From: an uncultured Candidatus Saccharibacteria bacterium
GTDB lineage: Bacteria; Patescibacteriota; Minisyncoccia; JACQLN01
NCBI GenBank assembly: GCA_964526375.1
Contig: CAZGLK010000002.1
Coordinates: forward strand, 1-52,938
DNA: 52,938 nt
Reading direction: 5' to 3'
This document shows positions 7,291 through 50,792 of this stretch, one piece after another. The translations under genes were made by a program, and so were the position numbers. Below the pieces are notes generated by a model. The model had not been told where the DNA came from, did not search any database, and saw only the letters and a program-made list of their open reading frames with translations. Each line of letters begins with the position of its first letter. The first letter of the stretch is position 1.

Positions 7291-7980
7291 ATGGCACAAC
7301 TTACTCCATCATTAAAAGAAGAAATAATGAGCATAAAAAATCCAGTTATCAGGTCGCGCTGGCAGAGGTTTTTTGTTATTCCGCAAGACTTACAGCAAGC
7401 TTTGTTTGGCGAACCGTTTGCTGAAAATGTTTGGGGCATTACCAAAGAAAAGTACGATCTGCCCGACGCCAGCGTGAGCGCCGTGGCCAGAATCATCGGC
7501 CTGATATTTTTGGGCGAACTGCCCATTAAAAATTTTATTGTGGCTTTAAGGGACAACCTTAAAATAGACGCGGCCAAAGCCGCGGCCATCGCCCAAGATA
7601 TCAACGCCGCTATTTTCCAGCCGGTCAGAGAAAGTTTGATGGCGGTGCACAACATACCGCAGACTAACGCGGACTATACGCAGACCAACGCGGACAACAA
7701 TCAGCGCAATACCAATAATATCAACCAAGTTCCAAGTTCCAAGTTCCAAGTTCCAAACAACGCACCGCCTCCCGTATCGCTAGACGAGCTCGATAAGCAC
7801 AACCCCACCAACGATCCGCGATCCAAGATCCAAGATCCAAGATACAAGACACAAGCCCCCAAACCCTACCAAGCCAAACAAACCGTTTACCTCGTGCCTA
7901 AAAAGAATGTGGTGGATTTAAGAAACATCAAGAGAAAGAGGTATAATAAGAGCAGGTATGAGGGGTTTTTCAGCGCGTAA
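7291..7980 (+). CDS. Hypothetical protein whose C-terminal half is encoded by low-complexity word repeats
   Basis: The first 120 aa of this 229-aa ORF look like ordinary protein. The rest translates ACGCGGAC, CAAGTTC and CAAGATC type repeats. Confidence 0.5.
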   Translation: MAQLTPSLKEEIMSIKNPVIRSRWQRFFVIPQDLQQALFGEPFAENVWGITKEKYDLPDASVSAVARIIGLIFLGELPIKNFIVALRDNLKIDAAKAAAIAQDINAAIFQPVRESLMAVHNIPQTNADYTQTNADNNQRNTNNINQVPSSKFQVPNNAPPPVSLDELDKHNPTNDPRSKIQDPRYKTQAPKPYQAKQTVYLVPKKNVVDLRNIKRKRYNKSRYEGFFSA

Positions 7981-7985
7981 CTCGT

Positions 7986-8457
7986 GAATAAGGAATTAGG
8001 AATTATGAATTAGGATATGAATTAGGAATGGTGTAAATTATGAATGAATACGGAAATCCAAGCAAAATACAATCATTTACTGATTTAGACGCCTGGAAAG
8101 AAGGGCATAAACTGGTTTTAATGGTCTATGAGACAACCATGACTTTTCCCAGAGAAGAAACTTTTGGCTTAACAAGTCAAAAAAGACGCTGCGTGGTATC
8201 CATAACTTCTAATATAGCCGAGGGATTCAGCCGACAATCCTACAAAGAAAAGGTGCGGTTTTACTCCATGGCGCAGGGATCGGTAACGGAGCTACAAAAT
8301 CAGCTACTTATAGCCAGAGATGTTGGTTATGTACCAACCGACAAATTCCAAACAATCGCAGAACAGTCAGTAAAGGTTCATAAAATAATCAGTGGATTGA
8401 TCAAGAAAACAAAAACGCTGTCTTAATTCCTTATTCCTAATTCATTATTCATAATTC
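7986..8457. repeat. Inverted-repeat-flanked cassette carrying a four-helix-bundle gene (family D arms)
   Basis: The left arm is GAATAAGGAATTAGGAATTATGAATTAGG. The right arm CTTAATTCCTTATTCCTAATTCATTATTCATAATTC is its approximate reverse complement. Confidence 0.7.
8040..8426 (+). CDS. Four-helix-bundle protein (23S IVS / Avd-like)
   Basis: The 128-aa ORF carries FTDLDAWKEGHKL, SITSNIAEGFSR and GSVTELQNQL. Confidence 0.9.
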   Translation: MNEYGNPSKIQSFTDLDAWKEGHKLVLMVYETTMTFPREETFGLTSQKRRCVVSITSNIAEGFSRQSYKEKVRFYSMAQGSVTELQNQLLIARDVGYVPTDKFQTIAEQSVKVHKIISGLIKKTKTLS

Positions 8458-8733
8458 ATGCAATATCAGGTTCCCCAATTCATAGAACTAGAAGACAAAA
8501 TCGTGGGGCCGCTCACCCTAAAGCAGTTTGGCTACATTGCCGGCGCGGGCGCGATTTGTTTTTTGTTCTTTTTTACGCTCAAGTTCGGATTCGCCCTGTC
8601 TTTGTCGGTGCCCGTGGGCAGTTTGGCTTTGGCTTTGGCTTTTGGCAAAGTAAAGGGTACCGCCATGCCGCGTTATTTGATGTCCATGATCGGATTCGCG
8701 CTTAAACCGCAGATGTACTTTTGGCGGAAATGA
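8458..8733 (+). CDS. PrgI-family (VirB3-like) small membrane protein
   Basis: The 91-aa ORF starts MQYQVPQFIELEDKIVGPLTLKQF and has two TM helices. This is the classic PrgI layout, and it lies upstream of VirB4. Confidence 0.75.
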   Translation: MQYQVPQFIELEDKIVGPLTLKQFGYIAGAGAICFLFFFTLKFGFALSLSVPVGSLALALAFGKVKGTAMPRYLMSMIGFALKPQMYFWRK

Positions 8734-21278: not shown

Positions 21279-21764
21279 GTGATTATACTTGGTATTGACC
21301 CCGGCACCAACAGAATTGGCTGGGGTGTGGTTGAAGAAAGCGATACCGCCATCCGTTTTGTTGATTGCGGCTGTGTTGAGTTTAAGACTAATACTGACAC
21401 ACATACCAATTTGGATCGTCTGCATACCTCGGTTCGCAAACTAATCAGCCAACACCAGCCCGACGCTGTGGCGGTGGAGAAGATATTTTTTTTTAAAAAT
21501 TCTAAAACAGTTATTGGGGTTAGCCAGGCTAGGGGTGTGATTTTGCTGGCCGCTGCCCAAACCAACACACCCATCCGCGAGTTTACTCCCTTGCAGGTAA
21601 AACAAGCGGTATCGGCTTACGGCCGAGCCCAAAAGAAAGAAGTTCAAAAAATGGTTCGCCTCATTTTGAATTTGGACTTTGACCCAGCTCCGGACGATGC
21701 CGCCGACGCCTTGGCTGTGGCCATTTGTGCCGCCCACTCTGTTGGAATAAGGAATAAGGAATAA
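21279..21764 (+). CDS. ruvC: Crossover junction endodeoxyribonuclease RuvC
   Basis: The ORF has a GTG start and contains ILGIDPGTNRIGWGV and the C-terminal DAADALAVAICAA. Confidence 0.92.
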   Translation: MIILGIDPGTNRIGWGVVEESDTAIRFVDCGCVEFKTNTDTHTNLDRLHTSVRKLISQHQPDAVAVEKIFFFKNSKTVIGVSQARGVILLAAAQTNTPIREFTPLQVKQAVSAYGRAQKKEVQKMVRLILNLDFDPAPDDAADALAVAICAAHSVGIRNKE

Positions 21765-22007
21765 TGAATTATGAATTAGGACGGGGGATTTACAAACCCG
21801 TGATTCATGATTCGGGATTCATGATTCGCTGTTTGGGTTGGGGATAAATCAGCATTGACCCGCAAGCCATAATAAGTAAAATTAAGCCAAGCTTAACAAT
21901 AGGCGGCTACACAACCAAATTAAAAGGTCGTTTTTAAGGCGGTAACCCCGCACTAGATCCGCCAGCTGGCGGATCAGTACAGGGTCTGACAATATAATAA
22001 ACATTAT

Positions 22008-29279: not shown

Positions 29280-29537
29280 TTAGCGGTAAATGTCTTTGCG
29301 GTGGTCAATGTCAAAAAAGATCGCTGTTTCTGCGTGCTGCAAATAAAAAAGCACCCGGAAATTGCGAGTGACCCTGAAAGAAAGAGCATGAGGGAGGATT
29401 TTAACTTTTTTGATGTGCAGCCGCGGGTCGCACCAGTTCTTTTGAAACGAACTCTTTTGAGTAAAATAGAGCCGCTGAATTTCCTTAGGCAGTTTGTTTA
29501 GTGACCTTTCAAAATCATCGGTCTGGATTATCTCCAT
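29280..29537 (-). CDS. RelE/ParE-superfamily toxin
   Basis: The 85-aa basic ORF overlaps the upstream small ORF by 10 nt. Its C-terminus FRVLFYLQHAETAIFFDIDHRKDIY resembles the RelE/YafQ type. Confidence 0.7.
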   Translation of the reverse strand: MEIIQTDDFERSLNKLPKEIQRLYFTQKSSFQKNWCDPRLHIKKVKILPHALSFRVTRNFRVLFYLQHAETAIFFDIDHRKDIYR

Positions 29538-29737
29538 ACGGAAGACACCGGCGGATATTTCTTTATGGCTTTTTCATAGGATCGTTTGATCCGTTGCGGG
29601 TGAGCATAGCCGACCAGATCTTCTTGAGGGAAAAGAAATTCAACCTCGCTTCTTAGCAGGCGGAGTTCCTCAATGACCGTTCCCAAGAGCTCGTTAGTGG
29701 CCGCAGCAGAGGTCTTATCTTTTGTGAGTATTTCCAT
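29528..29737 (-). CDS. Cognate antitoxin (family not recognised)
   Basis: The 69-aa ORF lies immediately upstream of the toxin and overlaps it. Confidence 0.55.
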   Translation of the reverse strand: MEILTKDKTSAAATNELLGTVIEELRLLRSEVEFLFPQEDLVGYAHPQRIKRSYEKAIKKYPPVSSVWR

Positions 29738-29782
29738 TAACCATGATTATAGTTTATCACCAAAGGTATGTCAATTTTCTTT

Positions 29783-29861
29783 CTAACCCACCCCTCAACA
29801 ACACGCGGATACACGCGGATCAAAACGCGGATACACGCGGATAGATTGAAGGGTGAGTTAG
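29783..29861. repeat. Hairpin element with an ACGCGGAT word loop (unit A head)
   Basis: CTAACCCACCCCTCAA (29783-29798) pairs with TTGAAGGGTGAGTTAG (29846-29861). The loop holds four ACGCGGAT words. Confidence 0.75.
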
Positions 29862-29939
29862 GGAGAGAAGGACTCTTCCGAAGGCGACGCGTGCCTATAA
29901 AGTGCGAGCCATGTAAACACCTGAAAGGAGGTGAAAAGC

Positions 29940-30197
29940 ATGGCAAGTAAGGATCTTTGGGTGGAGATTAAACTCCACCCGGAGGCCGAGCCGGTTTGGG
30001 CTCGGAGAGAGGTCCCGCCCGCAGTTGTCCAGGAGTTCCAAAGGATCCTGGATACTGGGGGTGGTGAGCACATCTCCTTTCCCTATCCCGACGATTCTGA
30101 AAGAATCGTTTCGGAGGTGGGGGGGCGAGATGTGGTTCTCTCTGTGCCCTCTCGGGCACGGGGAGGGAACTACGTGATCCATTTTTTGGGTCACTGA
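29940..30197 (+). CDS. Small acidic hypothetical protein (unit A payload, 85 aa)
   Basis: The ATG lies 9 nt after AAAGGAGGTGA, a near-perfect SD. The leader is conserved with unit B. I recognise no family. Confidence 0.6.
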   Translation: MASKDLWVEIKLHPEAEPVWARREVPPAVVQEFQRILDTGGGEHISFPYPDDSERIVSEVGGRDVVLSVPSRARGGNYVIHFLGH

Positions 30198-30234
30198 TTC
30201 CCGTTCCCGAAACCCGCCCCCACCGCGGTAATGT

Positions 30235-30466
30235 GGGGAGATGGCGCAGGTTGACGCCATACTGAAGCGGTCTTGATTGACGCGATACTAACCCGTGCCT
30301 GATGGCAGGCAGCCCGTGGAAACACGACGGGTATACGGGGAATAAGTGTCAGTAGAGACCGCCAGTCCAGACGAACAGCAGGACAACACTCCTTGCTGTT
30401 CAGGATTCAACCACAGGGCCGCCAAAGAGCTCGGCCCTAATCCCGAAGCACTCGGGAAAGCTCAAG
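30235..30466 (+). repeat. 232-nt structured element, copy 1 (candidate unclassified ncRNA)
   Basis: By eye it is identical to 31722-31953. It contains a 3-way junction (ACCCGT/ACGGGT closing GCCTG-ATGG-CAGGC and CGTG-GAAA-CACG). Further hairpins are GAACAGCA../..TGCTGTTC, GGGCCG/CGGCCC and CCCGA/TCGGG. Confidence 0.7.
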
Positions 30467-30641
30467 ATTTTGGGAGAGTTGCCAGAGATGACAGCTCTCC
30501 CCCTTATCCGAGTTCATCGTCTCTTTCCGCGTAAATCAGCGTTCTAATCTGCGTTGATCCGCGTAAAGTAAGGGTGGATTCAGAGGAGGGAAAAACATTC
30601 TCATATTCTGCAGAATGTTAGAATGTTGGTTCTTTGAGAAA

Positions 30642-30869
30642 TTAAGCAGGAGTTAGAACAACTTCAACGGGAAGAGGAACGGCCGTATGTTTCGCCTTCA
30701 TTCGGTGGGCAAAATTAAGCACCGTAAAACCCTTAACCTTGCGAGTTTTGGGGTCAAGGCGAAGAATCACATCGTTGGCGGCCTCTTCGCTGCGATCTTT
30801 TGCGGATGGCTTGCCTTGAGAGATGTAGAGTATGTCGGCCTCTTGGTCGTAGTAATAATAGAGTTGCAT
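30642..30869 (-). CDS. DUF2283-type small protein (antitoxin-like)
   Basis: The 75-aa ORF contains YYYDQEADILYISQG ... VKGFTVLNF, typical of DUF2283. Confidence 0.7.
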   Translation of the reverse strand: MQLYYYYDQEADILYISQGKPSAKDRSEEAANDVILRLDPKTRKVKGFTVLNFAHRMKAKHTAVPLPVEVVLTPA

Positions 30870-30873
30870 AATT

Positions 30874-31146
30874 TTAATGTTTGATTTTAGAGGTTAAGTA
30901 TATGGTAAGTATAAAGTTGCGTTGATTGGTTTTCACTACTACCACAAGATGTTTCCTCTGGCTGATTGGACTATAGCATATTTGCACCCTTGGATCAAAT
31001 TTCGATTGGCTAATAATACTGGGTTTGGCAAGTACTTGCTTAATCCGTTTCAGATAGCGTCTAACTTCTGGGTGGAATTTAAGAACATGCTCAACCCTTT
31101 CGTTAGTCAGCTCAACTTCTCCAAACGGCGAATCAAACTTCTTCAT
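30874..31146 (-). CDS. Putative toxin partner of DUF2283 (DUF4258 / RelE-barnase-like)
   Basis: The ATG at 31146 (MKKFDSPFGEV) gives a 90-aa protein. It contains ERVEHVLKFHPEV and LVVVVKTNQRNFILTIY, and lies 4 nt upstream of the DUF2283 gene. Confidence 0.55.
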   Translation of the reverse strand: MKKFDSPFGEVELTNERVEHVLKFHPEVRRYLKRIKQVLAKPSIISQSKFDPRVQICYSPISQRKHLVVVVKTNQRNFILTIYLTSKIKH

Positions 31147-31190
31147 TTTGATATTATACCTCAACGCTAATCCGTAGCCAATTTTCTTCT

Positions 31191-31292
31191 CTAACCCACC
31201 CCTCAACAATACGCGGATTAACCCCTCGACTTCGCTCAGGGCAAGCGCGGACTAAACGCGGATCTACGCGGATAGATTGAAGGGTGAGTTAG
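31191..31292. repeat. Hairpin element with an ACGCGGAT word loop (unit B head)
   Basis: The arms are the same as at 29783-29861 (CTAACCCACCCCTCAA / TTGAAGGGTGAGTTAG), but the loop is longer. Confidence 0.75.
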
Positions 31293-31377
31293 GGAGAGAA
31301 ATGCTCTTCCTATCAAAGGCGACGCGTGCCTATATAAAGTGCGAGCCATGTAAAACACCTGAAAGGAGGTGAAAGAT

Positions 31378-31686
31378 ATGGCAAAGGCATTTTCTTTCGT
31401 CCTTTACACCCAAGCCGGCGGGTACGACGGCTATGTGGTGGTTCAGGATGAGAGGACGGCAGACGCCACAGACGATTTGATTCGATCTGTGGTGGATCCC
31501 GAAGGGGAAATTTCTTTCGTCGGGGGAGTCCATCTGACTCCTTTTGGCGAGGGAGAACCCCAATCCCTCTGGCAGACAATCTGTCAGGAAGAAGAGGGGT
31601 TCCTTTTCGGAGGTGATTTGGCCGCAATGCTCGCCCGGACGCCAGCAGAGAAGCTGGTGAACCGGGTGGAGTACTACGGTCATTAA
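31378..31686 (+). CDS. Small highly acidic hypothetical protein (unit B payload, 102 aa)
   Basis: The ATG follows the same AAAGGAGGTGA leader. The protein is unrelated to the unit A payload, and both end in GH. Confidence 0.6.
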   Translation: MAKAFSFVLYTQAGGYDGYVVVQDERTADATDDLIRSVVDPEGEISFVGGVHLTPFGEGEPQSLWQTICQEEEGFLFGGDLAAMLARTPAEKLVNRVEYYGH

Positions 31687-31721
31687 GCCGCCCCGCCCTA
31701 ACCCTCCCCCTAGGGTCACAA

Positions 31722-31953
31722 GGGGAGATGGCGCAGGTTGACGCCATACTGAAGCGGTCTTGATTGACGCGATACTAACCCGTGCCTGATGGCAGGCAGC
31801 CCGTGGAAACACGACGGGTATACGGGGAATAAGTGTCAGTAGAGACCGCCAGTCCAGACGAACAGCAGGACAACACTCCTTGCTGTTCAGGATTCAACCA
31901 CAGGGCCGCCAAAGAGCTCGGCCCTAATCCCGAAGCACTCGGGAAAGCTCAAG
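31722..31953 (+). repeat. 232-nt structured element, copy 2
   Basis: By eye it is identical to 30235-30466. Confidence 0.7.
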
Positions 31954-32094
31954 TTTTGGGGAGAGGGTCTCAAAAAAGAGAATCTCTCCCCACCTTATCC
32001 GAGTTCATCATCCGCGTTTATCCGTTTGCCAATCTGCGTATATCCGCGATGTGTATGGTGGATTCAGAGGAGGGAGGTGTTCTTTGAAAAAAAA

Positions 32095-32307
32095 TTACAA
32101 ATCTTCTTCTGAAACGCCAGCTTGTTTTAGGATTGAATGAAGCGTGCCCTTGGGCAGGTCTTTGGTGTGGTAGGGTACGGATGCTCGTTTCTTCTTTTGC
32201 GGGTGATAAAAAATATAATGGCTTCCAGTAGCATAGTCTAACTGAAAGCCAAGACGTTTGAGAATAACAATAACCTTTTTGGGTGTAAGAGACGGGATCT
32301 TAGGCAT
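32095..32307 (-). CDS. hicA: HicA toxin
   Basis: The 70-aa ORF contains KKVIVILKRLGFQLDYATGSHYIF and LPKGTLHSILKQAG. Confidence 0.88.
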   Translation of the reverse strand: MPKIPSLTPKKVIVILKRLGFQLDYATGSHYIFYHPQKKKRASVPYHTKDLPKGTLHSILKQAGVSEEDL

Positions 32308-32557
32308 GGGCGGAAGCCTTTTCGCGGACAGGTTCCTTTATCTGAATAGAAGCAATGAATGTTTCTTCGTCTGAAGGAATTAGTTCACGATGTTTTCTAA
32401 GGCTCGCGATATATCCTTCGACGGCATCCCGCGCCATATTTTTGGCTTCGGTAAGGTTTTTCCCGTAACTAACGCAACCTGGCAAGGCCGGAACAAAAAC
32501 CGTAAACCCGCCCTCCGGTTCCGGACGAAGAATGATATTGTAATTGAGTATTTTCAT
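32300..32557 (-). CDS. hicB: HicB antitoxin
   Basis: The ATG at 32557 gives MKILNYNIILRPEPEGGFTVFVPALPGCVSYG. The gene overlaps hicA by 8 nt, and the longer track ORF (to 32869) is a spurious extension. Confidence 0.85.
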   Translation of the reverse strand: MKILNYNIILRPEPEGGFTVFVPALPGCVSYGKNLTEAKNMARDAVEGYIASLRKHRELIPSDEETFIASIQIKEPVREKASAHA

Positions 32558-32762
32558 ACACCAATATGGTATCAAACAAAATCCAATGTTGCAAATTTTT
32601 CCCCTAACCCACCCCTCAACAACGCGCGCCTGCCTGCGGCAGGCAGGGATATACGCGGTGTGATCTCTCACAAGATAGTTTAGTAAGTTGTTTTGTGAGA
32701 GGTCGCACGGTGCGGCTTCTGTAAAGACTTGGGGCCAATCCCAAGCAGGAAAGGAGGGTGCT

Positions 32763-33350
32763 ATGAAAATAGTGCTCTGCGGGCCGCCAAGGTCCGGCAA
32801 GTCCTGCTTGAGGGAAGGCCTCAAGCAGGCGGTGCGGCGTATTCCTGGAGCGCCGTATCCGTATGTCATAACCGGGTGCCCTGACGGGGAGGGCGCCTGG
32901 TTCCAGGAGACTGTGAACTTGGATCCCGAATTGGCGGCGCGGTGTAAGGCCGCCTATAAATCCAAGTTCACAACGGAATTCGTGCGGAGGGTCGCGGATT
33001 CCGTAAAAAGTTGTAACCTTCCTTTGACGCTCGTGGACATTGGTGGCATCCCGAGCGCTGAGAACGAGGAGATTTGCTCCTCGGCCACCCACGCCATTTT
33101 GCTGGCGGGCGATCTTGATCGTCTGCCCGAGTGGCGCGAGTTCTGCGGGAAGCTGGGTCTCCGCATCATCGCGGAGATCCATAGCGATTACCGTGGAACT
33201 GAAGACACCGCTCCTTCGCTCGGCGAGGATGGTGTCTGGAGTGGATCGGTTCATTACCTCGAAAGAGGCGAGCCGGTCCACGAGCGCCCGACAGTCAAGG
33301 CGCTCGCCGAGACCCTCGCGCAGATGGCTACTGCAGCAGAGGAGAACTAA
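32763..33350 (+). CDS. P-loop NTPase (possible Csx3-associated ATPase module)
   Basis: The ATG at 32763 follows GGAAAGGAGGG. Walker A is GPPRSGKS, and LTLVDIGG is Walker B/DxxG-like. The protein is 195 aa. Confidence 0.6.
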   Translation: MKIVLCGPPRSGKSCLREGLKQAVRRIPGAPYPYVITGCPDGEGAWFQETVNLDPELAARCKAAYKSKFTTEFVRRVADSVKSCNLPLTLVDIGGIPSAENEEICSSATHAILLAGDLDRLPEWREFCGKLGLRIIAEIHSDYRGTEDTAPSLGEDGVWSGSVHYLERGEPVHERPTVKALAETLAQMATAAEEN

Positions 33351-33486
33351 AACAGCCGCTCGGCGCGTTCCTTGCCAGCGCGTCCGGGTTTCCAAAAAAC
33401 AAAGGCTCAAAAAAAAGAGCCGCCTCTCCCAAGCTTGCCATAGTTTGGGTGACAAGAGGGGTCTCCTTGAGAAGAAAGGAGGAGAT

Positions 33487-33795
33487 ATGGCGGCGTATAA
33501 AATTTTTTTGGAGGGCGGAGACGTCCTCCGGGTCGGGTTCGGCGACCCGGCCCAGAACGACGCGATCTGCCGGGACGCCGCCCGGCAGCTGGAGGAGCTT
33601 GTCTCCTCCGGAGCCCTGGCCGGTGGCTCAGTTATTAAAATAAACGGCCCCGCCTCCTTGCCCGTGGCGGTGGTGTTCGCTCACGCGATTGGCCACCTCT
33701 ACGAGGCGGTGGCGGTGTTCGACCCCAAGCTGGGGAAGTATGTCGTGGCGGTTAGCCACGGTGTCCAGCTCGGGGTCGGCGACCTGATCGACTAG
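33487..33795 (+). CDS. csx3: Csx3/Crn3-like protein (putative cyclic oligoadenylate ring nuclease)
   Basis: The ATG follows GAAAGGAGGAG and the protein is 102 aa. IKINGPASLPVAVVFAHAIGHLYEAVAVFDPKLGKYVVAVSHG...GDLI matches, from memory, the Csx3 pattern GRGPIWL..H..H..VAVYDPRLG..VVVQSH..GDVI. Confidence 0.55.
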   Translation: MAAYKIFLEGGDVLRVGFGDPAQNDAICRDAARQLEELVSSGALAGGSVIKINGPASLPVAVVFAHAIGHLYEAVAVFDPKLGKYVVAVSHGVQLGVGDLID

Positions 33796-33860
33796 CCATC
33801 GGTCAGGAAAAAACTCCCGAGTGGCGCTCGGGGCATTCACCTGAAAGGAGGTGAAAAAAC

Positions 33861-33995
33861 ATGGAGGAGTTCGGCCGCTTTGTCGCGGCCATCCCGCCAC
33901 GGGACGTTTTGGCCCTGTTGGTGGGGTGGGCGGGCCTGCTCCTTTGCGTCGCTGACGCAGTGGAGCGGCTCCTTAACGAGAAATTTCCTCGTTAA
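33861..33995 (+). CDS. Possible 44-aa hydrophobic peptide (third payload behind the shared SD)
   Basis: CACCTGAAAGGAGGTGAAAA lies at 33839-33858 and the ATG at 33861. My translation gives MEEFGRFVAAIPPRDVLALLVGWAGLLLCVADAVERLLNEKFPR. Confidence 0.4.
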   Translation: MEEFGRFVAAIPPRDVLALLVGWAGLLLCVADAVERLLNEKFPR

Positions 33996-34368
33996 AAGGT
34001 CCCCGCCCTCGTCAAATCCCCGGTCACGGAGCCGGGGTTGCCCGAAAGTCCACGGGCGTAAAAGTATGGGTAAAAGGCCAGGGGGTTGCCTGACGCGCAC
34101 TCGTCAAAAACCCTCTCTGTTCTCCGCCCAAGGCGGACTGACGAGCTCCCACTTTCGCCAAGAAGCTTCAGCGGGCAGGCAAAAGAGTGGAAACAGACCG
34201 CCGTGGTGGGCGGACGAGAATTGGGGAAATCTTTTATGCCCCCCTGATTCGCAAAAACACCAGTCCTTATAAAGCTGTGAGCTGGAAAAATCTCTCTCCT
34301 TGGTTTTGTTGAAGGTTCTTTGAGAATTTTTAACGAAACAATCCAGTTCGCAGCTTTATGGGGGCTAC

Positions 34369-34403
34369 CAAAACCGCCCCGATGTTATGTCGGGGCGGTT
34401 TTG
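34369..34403. terminator. Hairpin at the right edge of the island
   Basis: The hairpin is CAAAACCGCCCC-GATGTTATGTC-GGGGCGGTTTTG, preceded by GGGGGCTACC. It is nearly the same as 26791-26841. Confidence 0.7.
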
Positions 34404-34432
34404 TTGTATATTTGTTGTATAATGGGACTATT

Positions 34433-34702
34433 ATGGAAAAAGAAACAATCGGCTTGGAGTCCGAAGTGCATCCCCCGGAGCCAAACATCAGAGATACCAA
34501 TTTTATACAGAGGGACTTGATTACCCGTTCCGGCCAAAATCCGCTGGAATGGATAAAGGAAAAGTCCGATGAGATTCAGAAACTGGTTAATTCGCGGCCA
34601 GAGCTTTTTTACGGCTATGCCGAACTAAATGAAGAGGAAAAAGTCCTGCGGTTGAAATCGGTGGAAGCAGAATTAAACCAGTTTCTCAAAGAAGCTATCT
34701 AG
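34433..34702 (+). CDS. Hypothetical small protein
   Basis: The ATG at 34433 (MEKETIG) has a TATAAT at 34419-34424 upstream. The track start at 34358 lies within the hairpin. Confidence 0.55.
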   Translation: MEKETIGLESEVHPPEPNIRDTNFIQRDLITRSGQNPLEWIKEKSDEIQKLVNSRPELFYGYAELNEEEKVLRLKSVEAELNQFLKEAI

Positions 34703-39598: not shown

Positions 39599-40075
39599 AT
39601 GCGGCTGGTTTTGAAAAATCTTAAAGATACCCAAAAACTGGCCAAAAGACTGGCCAAAGAGTGGCTGTGTCAAACCGGTCCCTTGACCATCGCCCTGTAC
39701 GGCGGTTTGGGCGCGGGCAAGACAACCTTTGTTCAATTTTTTGCCAGAGCGGTGGGGGCAAAGGATAAAGTGTTGAGCCCGACTTTTTTAATTATCAAGG
39801 CTCTCTGTCTTGATGCGCGGATTGACGCGGATCAAAGACGGATATACGCGGATATACTTAAGTATAAAAGATTGATCCATATTGATTGTTATCGTCTAAA
39901 GTCGGCCAAAGAGCTTGTTGCCTTGGGGCTCAAAGACATTTTAAGAGATAAAGAAAACATTGTGGTTATAGAATGGCCGGAGAAGATCGCCCGATATTTA
40001 CCGGGGAGCACGAAGAAGGTTTGGTTTGAAGTGGTGGGAGAGAAAGAAAGAAAAATCATTATTAAAAATATCTAA
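39599..40075 (+). CDS. tsaE: tRNA t6A biosynthesis protein TsaE, carrying a repeat-derived insertion
   Basis: The ATG at 39599 gives an ORF with P-loop GGLGAGKTTF, SPTF and HIDCYRL. About 15 extra aa between SPTF and HIDCYRL are encoded by GCGCGGAT/ACGCGGAT words. Confidence 0.85.
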   Translation: MRLVLKNLKDTQKLAKRLAKEWLCQTGPLTIALYGGLGAGKTTFVQFFARAVGAKDKVLSPTFLIIKALCLDARIDADQRRIYADILKYKRLIHIDCYRLKSAKELVALGLKDILRDKENIVVIEWPEKIARYLPGSTKKVWFEVVGEKERKIIIKNI

Positions 40076-40232
40076 TTTCTAATATCTAATTTCTAATAAA
40101 ATGACTAATTCCCAAACATCTAAAATCTTGGTTTGGTATTGGTCATTAGGCATTTGGAATTGATTGGAAATTAGAAATTGTCTCCCTTCGGGAGATCTCC
40201 CGTAGGGAGAGTAATTGGAAATTTTCCAACAC
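40076..40232. repeat. Family-C palindromic word repeats
   Basis: The arms are ATCTAATTTCTAATATCTAATTTCTAAT and TTGGAAATTAGAAATTG. TCTCCCTTCGGGAGA and TCTCCCGTAGGGAGA mini-hairpins are also present. A similar block lies at 52097-52220. Confidence 0.7.
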
Positions 40233-49840: not shown

Positions 49841-49883
49841 ACTTTGTGATGCGGGGTGAATCATGAATTATGAATCATGAATT

Positions 49884-50792
49884 ATGAATAAGGAATTATG
49901 GGACAAGAAAGCGACTGATTTTGGCGGTGAATTTCTGCAAAGCTGGGAGTGGGGTGAGTTCCAGGAAAGTTTGGGCAAGAAGGTAATAAAGTTTTTTGAC
50001 GATGATTTGGGTTTGGCGCAGATTGTAATCACTTCCTTGCCGCTGGGGCTCTCGTGGGCCTATGTGCCTCGCGGGCCGGTGTTTTTTAACCCCGAACGAG
50101 CCCAAGATTTAGCGGACAAAATTGTCCGAGCGATGCCGGCTGGTTGTGTTTTTGTGGTTTTGGAGCCGGCTGATCGCGTCAGTCTGTCTTGGAAAAAATT
50201 CAAGCCCCGCCAGCCGGTTGAAACCGTGGCGCTGGATTTGTCCCAGAGCGAAGGGGAATTGTTGGATGCCATGAATCCTAAAACACGCTACTCCATTAGG
50301 CGATCATTAACCAGCGGCTTGGATTTTGCGGAGGTAGAAGATGTTTCGGAGTTTTATAAACTTTTAGTCTCAACCGCCCGCCGCCAATCTTTTAGAACTT
50401 ACCCCGAGATTTATTTTAAGCGCATGGTAGAGGCGATCGGTAAAAGCAATGTTAAAATTCTCGGCGCGCGTCACCAAGGCAAATTGCTCTCGGCCGGACT
50501 GTTTGTGATTTTTGGCTCCACGGCCTTTTACCTTCACAGCGGCTCGGATTACGAGTCGCACTCGCTGATGGCGCCGTATTTTATGCACTGGGAGGCGATT
50601 AAATATTTTCGAGCGCGCGGCTTAAAGAGTTATGATTTTTGGGGCATAGACGCCCAGCGCTGGCCGGGTATAACCCGTTTCAAAACCCGCTTCGGCGGCA
50701 CAGTAAAAACATACCCAGGCGCTTATGTTAAAGTATTAAAGCCGTTTTGGTTTGGAGTATATCAATTGGCTAAGAAGTTTAATGTTGGATGA
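49884..50792 (+). CDS. FemAB-family peptidoglycan interpeptide-bridge aminoacyltransferase
   Basis: The 302-aa ORF contains FLQSWEWGEFQ and YDFWGI, which resemble the FemX/FemAB family. Confidence 0.8.
   Translation: MNKELWDKKATDFGGEFLQSWEWGEFQESLGKKVIKFFDDDLGLAQIVITSLPLGLSWAYVPRGPVFFNPERAQDLADKIVRAMPAGCVFVVLEPADRVSLSWKKFKPRQPVETVALDLSQSEGELLDAMNPKTRYSIRRSLTSGLDFAEVEDVSEFYKLLVSTARRQSFRTYPEIYFKRMVEAIGKSNVKILGARHQGKLLSAGLFVIFGSTAFYLHSGSDYESHSLMAPYFMHWEAIKYFRARGLKSYDFWGIDAQRWPGITRFKTRFGGTVKTYPGAYVKVLKPFWFGVYQLAKKFNVG

Follow-up and report, generated by a model that had tools for sequence, protein, structure and literature searches.

The analysis of a 52,938-nucleotide contig from an uncultured Candidatus Saccharibacteria bacterium (GenBank assembly GCA_964526375.1, contig CAZGLK010000002.1, analyzed at full length and referred to here as the window) revealed two adjacent genes encoding a 195-residue P-loop nucleoside triphosphatase (NTPase) and a 102-residue protein of the Csx3/Crn3 family. 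The balance tips slightly in favour of the two genes forming one functional module with the mechanism proposed below, namely a split, CRISPR-orphan member of the Csx3-NTPase family ('Csx3-AAA', 'AAA-Csx3', Csx3′). The identities of the two domains and their coupling are established by the data that follow; the substrate, the catalysis and the part played by the NTPase are what we infer.

The 102-residue protein is, as judged by profile matches and predicted fold, a Csx3-family domain. It matched Pfam PF09620 (Cas_csx3) with an E-value of 3.2e-5 and 24.1 bits, the gathering cut-off being 21 bits. The PADLOC profile Csx3(CARF) was matched with an E-value of 2.8e-14 over residues 12-91, and the PADLOC Csx3-AAA profile (PDLC01045, 286 positions) with an E-value of 1.8e-24, where the full-length protein aligned with profile positions 1-99. 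The motif by which a sequence-only reading of this DNA had recognized a Csx3 core in the open reading frame (ORF) at 33487 is present as GP..AH66...H70...VAVFD79PK81LG..VV..SH91...GDLID, and that identification was borne out. So was its proposed structural comparison with AF1864 of Archaeoglobus fulgidus (AfCsx3): the best Protein Data Bank neighbour found by Foldseek for the AlphaFold2 model (predicted local distance difference test score, pLDDT, 85.8) was AfCsx3 (3wzi_A; E-value 2.5e-4, template modelling (TM) score on the query 0.59, 104 aligned columns). The next neighbours were the CARF domain of Cat1, which binds cyclic tetra-adenylate (cA4), followed by SAVED and STAS domains.

Alignment to AF1864 placed H57, D69 and H80 of the archaeal protein opposite H66, D79 and H91. 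Together with H70 and K81 these are candidate catalytic residues on sequence grounds. None of the five varied among 36 close homologues, and across 52 split copies from outside the cyanobacteria each was at least 94% conserved. More than 700 homologues with 65-88% identity were found for this half of the pair.

The 195-residue protein has a Walker A motif at G7-PPRSGKS-14 (G7, K13, S14), a P40-D41-G-E-G motif, a Walker B motif D92-x-G-G, and conserved W124, S141 and R168. Both Walker motifs are intact and the PDGEG motif is invariant; over 114 representatives of 50%-identity clusters the conserved positions were G7, G12, K13, D41 (100%), D92 (100%), G95, W124, S141 and R168. Homologues number more than 1000, again at 65-88% identity. 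The protein matched the PADLOC Csx3-AAA profile at positions 109-285 of 286 (E-value 7.8e-58), the C3a67 'AAA-Csx3' profile (PDLC01059; 9.7e-36) and a 183-position 'Csx3' profile (1.2e-56). No Pfam or NCBIfam family was matched, and sequence searches of the Protein Data Bank with a single sequence or a profile gave nothing usable; homology to polynucleotide kinase, Clp1/Grc3 or Pnk was not detected. In the AlphaFold2 model (pLDDT 85.7) the closest folds found by Foldseek were GPN-loop GTPase, SRP/FtsY, MinD/Soj and shikimate kinase or other small P-loop kinases, with TM scores of 0.35-0.6. Judging by this model, the NTPase is a kinase/SIMIBI-like P-loop enzyme rather than an AAA+ ATPase. The latter identity, which the sequence-only reading had implied, was rejected: there is no Pfam AAA match, the structural neighbours are not AAA+, and the protein has only 195 residues.

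Relatives of the NTPase carry HD, HD_4 or Csx3 domains on either side, and a neighbouring paralogue matches the kinase-type family AAA_18; the fused P-loop domain of cyanobacteria has been labelled 'kinase/transferase' (PMC7371418). A tblastn search of plasmids aligned 98% of the NTPase, at 38% identity, to the C-terminal half of a 311-residue protein of Synechocystis pSYSA. The gene of this protein lies upstream of CRISPR3 and is flanked by HD, TIGR03985 and RAMP genes, and because of its position it is most likely the slr7080 of the literature. Copies in Nostoc and Calothrix are 53-58% identical to the NTPase.

An alternative reading of the pair is RNA end-processing or repair unrelated to cyclic nucleotides, in which Csx3 would be a Mn2+-dependent 3′ deadenylating exoribonuclease and the P-loop protein a 5′-OH polynucleotide kinase, some of whose relatives have HD phosphoesterases. 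AfCsx3 was first described as an exoribonuclease of this kind and removes 3′ adenylates in vitro (PMC7371418). The HD and HD_4 fusions in both orders are reminiscent of HD-Pnk end-healing enzymes, HD genes recur beside the module, and such a function would account for its persistence in lineages without CRISPR. However, the affinity of AfCsx3 for RNA is about 100-fold lower than for cA4 (PMC7371418), no RNA ligase (RtcB or similar) was present among the recurrent neighbours, and the polynucleotide kinase assignment lacks any sequence match. We regard this explanation as very improbable.

Comparison of 80 loci from species-representative genomes demonstrated that the NTPase and the Csx3 domain are an obligate pair, encoded either as a fusion, in both possible orders, or as separate genes. 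A Csx3 domain was fused to the NTPase or encoded nearby in 73 loci (21 fused, 52 nearby), and in the remaining seven the neighbourhood was cut off by a contig end. For 42 of the 52 split loci only a Csx3 gene was found within 600 bp. Cyanobacteria have Csx3-NTPase fusions, in many cases accompanied by another, stand-alone Csx3 gene, and Poribacteria and Thioploca have NTPase-Csx3 fusions; in Patescibacteria the genes are separate and occur in either order. Shah et al. had already listed the two fused orders as clusters 35 and 67 of type III accessory proteins (PMC6546367). Unlike those Csx3-AAA and AAA-Csx3 proteins, the window pair has its domains in separate polypeptides. In a rough neighbour-joining tree the window Csx3 clusters with Patescibacteria copies near the fusions in which the P-loop domain comes first, consistent with its own gene order. 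The fused forms in other phyla and the PADLOC matches given above confirm the suggestion of the sequence-only reading that the upstream Walker A protein is the split half of a Csx3-'AAA' fusion.

Where cyanobacterial Csx3 genes and fusions lie side by side (loci L068, L073, L074, L079-L085 and L091), the stand-alone copy retains the His/His/Asp/Lys/His set. In the fused Csx3 domain, H70 is replaced by Gln in 7 of 14 cases and H91 by Gln in 7 of 14. This sequence pattern suggests that stand-alone and fused copies may be catalytic and sensor subunits, respectively. It is one of three points in favour of a scheme in which Csx3 would be a CARF-like ligand sensor and the NTPase a ligand-switched effector, acting by ATP depletion or target phosphorylation, with cleavage resetting the sensor; the others are the proposal of such a role for fused forms by Shah et al. 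(PMC6546367) and the Foldseek matches to the Cat1 CARF and SAVED domains. The only Csx3 in the window, however, is of the type in which all candidate catalytic residues are retained, the 195-residue NTPase contains no recognizable toxic effector domain, and no ligand source was found nearby. A sensor and effector of this kind therefore seem to us unlikely here.

The window had been described as devoid of cas genes, CRISPR array and CARF/SAVED effectors, and this description holds. Tandem Repeats Finder detected no CRISPR-like array, and a PADLOC scan of 57 window ORFs (E < 1e-6) detected no cas, CARF, SAVED or CD-NTase families except the Csx3 profiles themselves. Likewise, no cas families were present among the top PADLOC matches of 116 neighbour proteins from 14 Patescibacteria loci. 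Cyanobacterial loci have Cas10/Cmr2, RAMP, Card1, WYL and HD genes as neighbours, none of which occurs in the Patescibacteria loci. The recurrent neighbours in the latter are a TrmB-like regulator (31 loci), a GNAT/methyltransferase protein of about 830 residues (15 loci) and bpMoxR with a VWA protein (10 loci); some loci also contain a paralogue of 580-610 residues in which an AAA_18-type P-loop is joined to a weak Csx3 domain. Since the split form is common in bacteria of the candidate phyla radiation without CRISPR genes nearby, its role there is probably not the textbook one.

A larger operon follows the pair in about ten Patescibacteria genomes (for example L094, 9529-16246; L038, 10001-17070; L037, 13086-18114). 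It encodes the 580-610-residue P-loop/Csx3 protein, small ORFs of no known family, a bpMoxR ATPase, a VWA protein and a protein of about 650-690 residues, and may be a bigger conflict system built around Csx3.

Both genes of the pair are under strong purifying selection, with ratios of nonsynonymous to synonymous divergence (dN/dS) of 0.08-0.21. These values and the conservation described above rule out a decaying remnant. Their base composition is unusual: GC content at third codon positions (GC3) in the window is 0.70 and 0.82 for the two genes against a GC content of 47%, and elsewhere reaches 0.98 against 44%. Nearly all Patescibacteria loci (L001-L060) show such an excess, with a GC3 of 0.5-0.98 in the pair and a genomic GC content of 0.36-0.5 around it; cyanobacterial copies have the composition of their hosts. 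Sharing at the DNA level between loci is limited to the two genes. These features suggest that the pair has moved horizontally more than once or that its composition is constrained. As an explanation of the high GC content, a recent transfer from one donor was ruled out by the synonymous divergence (dS) between copies, which at 0.7-1.8 is near saturation.

Neither IMG/VR nor a set of 50,697 phage records contains the NTPase. Stand-alone Csx3 of the window clade is present, without the NTPase, in seven IMG/VR contigs (L136-L142, 22-155 kb) at 46-52% identity, and in two of these (L137 and L141) it lies a few kb from DarB-like antirestriction/methyltransferase-helicase genes. On sequence grounds the viral copies are candidates for viral ring nucleases of the Csx3 type.

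The data on composition and viruses need to be considered together with the possibility that the pair is mobile anti-defence cargo, which, in the manner of AcrIII-1, would destroy the cyclic oligoadenylate (cOA) made by the type III CRISPR (or related) defence of a recipient cell. The GC-rich character of the pair relative to nearly all Patescibacteria hosts, neighbourhoods that vary between genomes with only the two genes in common, the position of the window pair in a repeat-bounded array with toxin-antitoxin (TA) modules and a Fic gene, and the seven viral contigs, two with DarB-like neighbours, are all in keeping with this. The viral copies, on the other hand, have no NTPase. Many Patescibacteria copies lie among housekeeping genes and next to the recurrent TrmB-like regulator, and so look like genes that have been domesticated on the chromosome; the near-saturated synonymous divergence rules out a recent sweep; and among the ORFs scanned the island around the window pair yielded no integrase, transposase or phage gene. 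On this evidence a cargo function is quite doubtful.

For the split, CRISPR-orphan Csx3-NTPase module we propose the following mechanism. The Csx3 protein would dimerize, and stacked dimers would sandwich a small adenylate-rich ligand, as in AfCsx3; the ligand would most likely be a cyclic oligoadenylate such as cA4, which the protein would cut with Mn2+. The NTPase would bind Csx3 as its partner and could act in one of two ways. It might carry out ATP-driven processing of linear products with 5′-OH ends, in a nuclease-kinase pairing like Las1-Grc3 or HD-Pnk, or its nucleotide-dependent dimerization might gate the stacking of Csx3. In this genome the module would then remove or process the signal independently of CRISPR; it could turn off signalling by a cyclase whose gene lies elsewhere, or provide protection as part of horizontally moving DNA. 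Taken as a whole, mechanism included, this is the best explanation we can offer, and our confidence in it lies just above even.

Several observations weigh against it. We know of no assayed member of the Csx3-NTPase clade, and to our knowledge Patescibacteria are largely devoid of CRISPR-Cas. The 53-kb window yielded no cyclase that could produce the ligand. Although the sequence-only reading was right to expect a match to the Pfam Csx3 model, the TIGR02579 profile that it named alongside was missed, with 24.3 bits against an equivalog cut-off of 55.4 bits (NCBIfam). The kinase role depends on weak fold similarity (TM 0.35-0.6), and judged by the model GTPase-type switches would fit equally well. 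Residue roles have been assigned in AfCsx3 to H57, H60, D69, R71, H80 and the S44-G45-R46 loop (PMC7371418), and positions reported as absolutely conserved in canonical Csx3 differ in the window protein. There R71 is replaced by Lys (K81); H60 faces G69 (Gly/Ala), H70 being one position later and aligned with H61; the cA4-contact loop S44-G45-R46 is replaced by K51-I52-N53; and I49 is Ala. Because several cA4-contact residues are thus replaced, ring-nuclease activity of the 102-residue protein is something we only infer. The same departures from AfCsx3 are seen in cyanobacterial members inside type III loci and so mark the whole NTPase-linked clade, not this gene alone. Finally, a passage in PMC9676260 cites a deletion of slr7080 that left plasmid interference unaffected.

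A broader version, that the split pair is the core of a CRISPR-independent system for processing nucleotide signals or RNA ends, widespread and strongly conserved in Patescibacteria, is put forward tentatively, as we consider it rather unlikely.

The Csx3-NTPase family and its fusions in both orders are already known. The literature consulted presents Crn3/Csx3 as an accessory of type III CRISPR in euryarchaea and cyanobacteria, with a fused 'AAA' or 'kinase' domain without known function. A partial literature search found no description of the split form, of its abundance in Patescibacteria without CRISPR, or of the NTPase as a non-AAA+ enzyme. The window pair has the same two domains as Csx3-AAA (Shah cluster 35, for example CYB_0599; the Synechocystis pSYSA 311-residue protein; Csx3′ of Athukoralage et al.), and has the NTPase-then-Csx3 order in common with AAA-Csx3 (cluster 67, C3a67, for example Caur_2269). 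It differs from both in that its domains are two genes 136 nucleotides apart, in the lack of type III CRISPR-Cas and of a WYL/TIGR03985, HD or Card1 neighbour, in its Patescibacteria-type host rather than a cyanobacterium or Chloroflexus, and in that the genes are compositionally foreign to the host.

AfCsx3 (AF1864; PDB 3WZI and 6YUD) has the same predicted fold and size as the 102-residue protein, the equivalents of H57, D69 and H80, and the DP(R/K)LG and GD.ID motifs. Identity between the two is only about 22% (phmmer E-value 0.09); besides the change of R71 to Lys and the shift of H60 by one residue, the cA4-contact loop reads SGRGPI in AfCsx3 and KINGPA in the window protein. The window Csx3 has an obligate NTPase partner, whereas AF1864 has none, and it is not beside csx1 or cmr genes. 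AcrIII-1/Crn2 (DUF1874), a small stand-alone cA4-degrading protein on mobile elements, is a possible functional analogue; its fold is unrelated, its mechanism is metal-independent, and it has no sequence or structure match to the window protein. In Las1-Grc3 and HD-Pnk, a phosphodiesterase leaving 5′-OH ends is coupled with a kinase-like P-loop enzyme. The resemblance is no more than an analogy: the window pair has no detectable Clp1/Grc3 or Pnk homology and the kinase activity of its NTPase is putative.

Coordinates of the pair and of the features around it in the window
Feature	Position	Strand	Basis
P-loop NTPase gene, 'AAA' half of Csx3-AAA, 195 residues	32763..33350	+	PADLOC, AlphaFold2 model, ORF
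Intergenic spacer between the two genes, 136 nt, ending in AAAGGAGGAG	33351..33486	+	sequence
Stand-alone Csx3/Crn3-family gene, 102 residues	33487..33795	+	PF09620, PADLOC, AlphaFold2/Foldseek
Repeat-family ribosome-binding-site hairpin CACCTGAAAGGAGGTGAAA, then 44-residue ORF (33861-33995)	33838..33995	+	repeat copies
GC-rich untranslated tail with strong intrinsic terminator (34369-34403, 16-bp stem)	33996..34403	+	fold z-score -5.6, terminator scan, GC profile
Exact 19-mer CTAACCCACCCCTCAACAA, start of GC-rich unit with the pair	32604..32622	+	repeat family D2
Fic-domain protein, C-terminal winged helix	26840-27943	-	PADLOC SoFic 3e-40
ParE-like protein (weak match) and small partner	29280-29737	-	TA-type pair
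Unit A, first copy of ~0.9-kb element	29772-30600	+	repeat comparison
DUF4258-like/DUF2283 TA-type pair	30642-31149	-	Pfam
Unit B, second copy of ~0.9-kb element	31179-32090	+	repeat comparison
HicA (2.5e-20)/HicB (5.4e-9) pair	32095-32560	-	Pfam

The NTPase gene starts with ATG, immediately preceded by GGAAAGGAGGG with a good ribosome-binding site, and its product begins MKIVLCGPPRSGKS; the stop codon is 33348-33350. A Shine-Dalgarno sequence, AAAGGAGGAG, closes the spacer just 5′ of the Csx3-like gene. As no convincing + strand terminator was found in this spacer, where the scan gave a minus-strand hairpin only, the two genes are likely to be co-transcribed. The first strong + strand terminator occurs at 34369-34403. 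Transcription probably ends there, so that the unit would consist of the NTPase gene, the Csx3-like gene, the 44-residue ORF and the GC-rich tail. It is uncertain whether the 44-residue ORF and its hairpin belong to the pair: gene calling picked up the ORF on two further small contigs from this population, and it is not conserved beside the pair in other genomes. The 19-mer of the hairpin has three exact copies in the window (0.01 expected by chance); it also matched seven viral contigs, with a common stretch of only 19-23 nucleotides.

The pair is situated in an island where GC content alternates between 38-46% in TA modules and 53-63% in cargo. The 19-mer CTAACCCACCCCTCAACAA opens each of three GC-rich + strand units, the pair being the cargo of the third. 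Its three exact copies (29783, 31191 and 32604; none expected by chance) each precede a different, divergently oriented TA operon, 42-46 nucleotides upstream of its start codon; for the copy at 32604 the distance is 44 nucleotides to the start codon of the divergent hicB and about 140 nucleotides to the NTPase gene, which it likewise precedes. This 19-mer is absent from IMG/VR and from 142 collected loci. Units A and B have in common a 165-nucleotide leader, which holds CGCGGAT repeats and the ribosome-binding-site hairpin CACCTGAAAGGAGGTG, and a 244-nucleotide 3′ element that is 99% identical and has a very stable + strand fold (z = -8.3). The 3′ element had no Rfam match, and a 17-mer from it matched 31 metagenome contigs without further similarity, for which reason these matches were taken as chance. 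The small ORFs of the units (85/88 and 102/105 residues) match no family and are mutually dissimilar, and a homologue search with the unit B ORF in 5.8 billion proteins returned only the ORF itself. The element may be an undescribed structured RNA or cassette.

The expectation that the pair lies among TA modules and small acidic proteins was upheld for the former (HicA, HicB, the DUF2283/DUF4258-like pair and a weak ParE-like match); the latter are ORFs that may not be real genes. In its layout the island resembles a cassette array. A Pfam scan of part of the window ORFs revealed no integrase, transposase or phage gene, and because an integrase is lacking among these ORFs the reading of the island as an integron is unsupported.

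The window as a whole is chromosomal in character, as ORF content and Pfam matches identified dnaA, dnaN, ruvABC, polA, uvrB, tyrS and mur genes. No tRNA genes were found in it. Rfam gave no match in the window at gathering thresholds, and relaxed thresholds in 29500-34500 gave chance-level matches only. The CGCGGAT motif occurs in 22 copies in the window (6.3 expected by chance), including a tandem cluster outside the island at 39816-39857 with a period of 10 and about four copies. Short tandem heptamers (CCAAGTT, GAATTAG, TAATTCA, TGAATTA) are present in many intergenic spacers (7700-8460, 21744-21830, 40067-40098, 49857-49900 and others).

The described pair belongs to a very large, highly conserved branch in Patescibacteria without cas genes nearby, and raises the question of what purpose a ring-nuclease-type module serves in bacteria that have no matching CRISPR system. 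As two separate proteins it is a simple system for working out the role of the NTPase. If the module destroys cOA, it could be a tool for, or a natural inhibitor of, type III signalling. If it acts independently of CRISPR, Patescibacteria would use or face cyclic-oligoadenylate-type signals from an unrecognized source, or the ancestral role of Csx3 with its kinase-like partner would differ from switching off type III systems.

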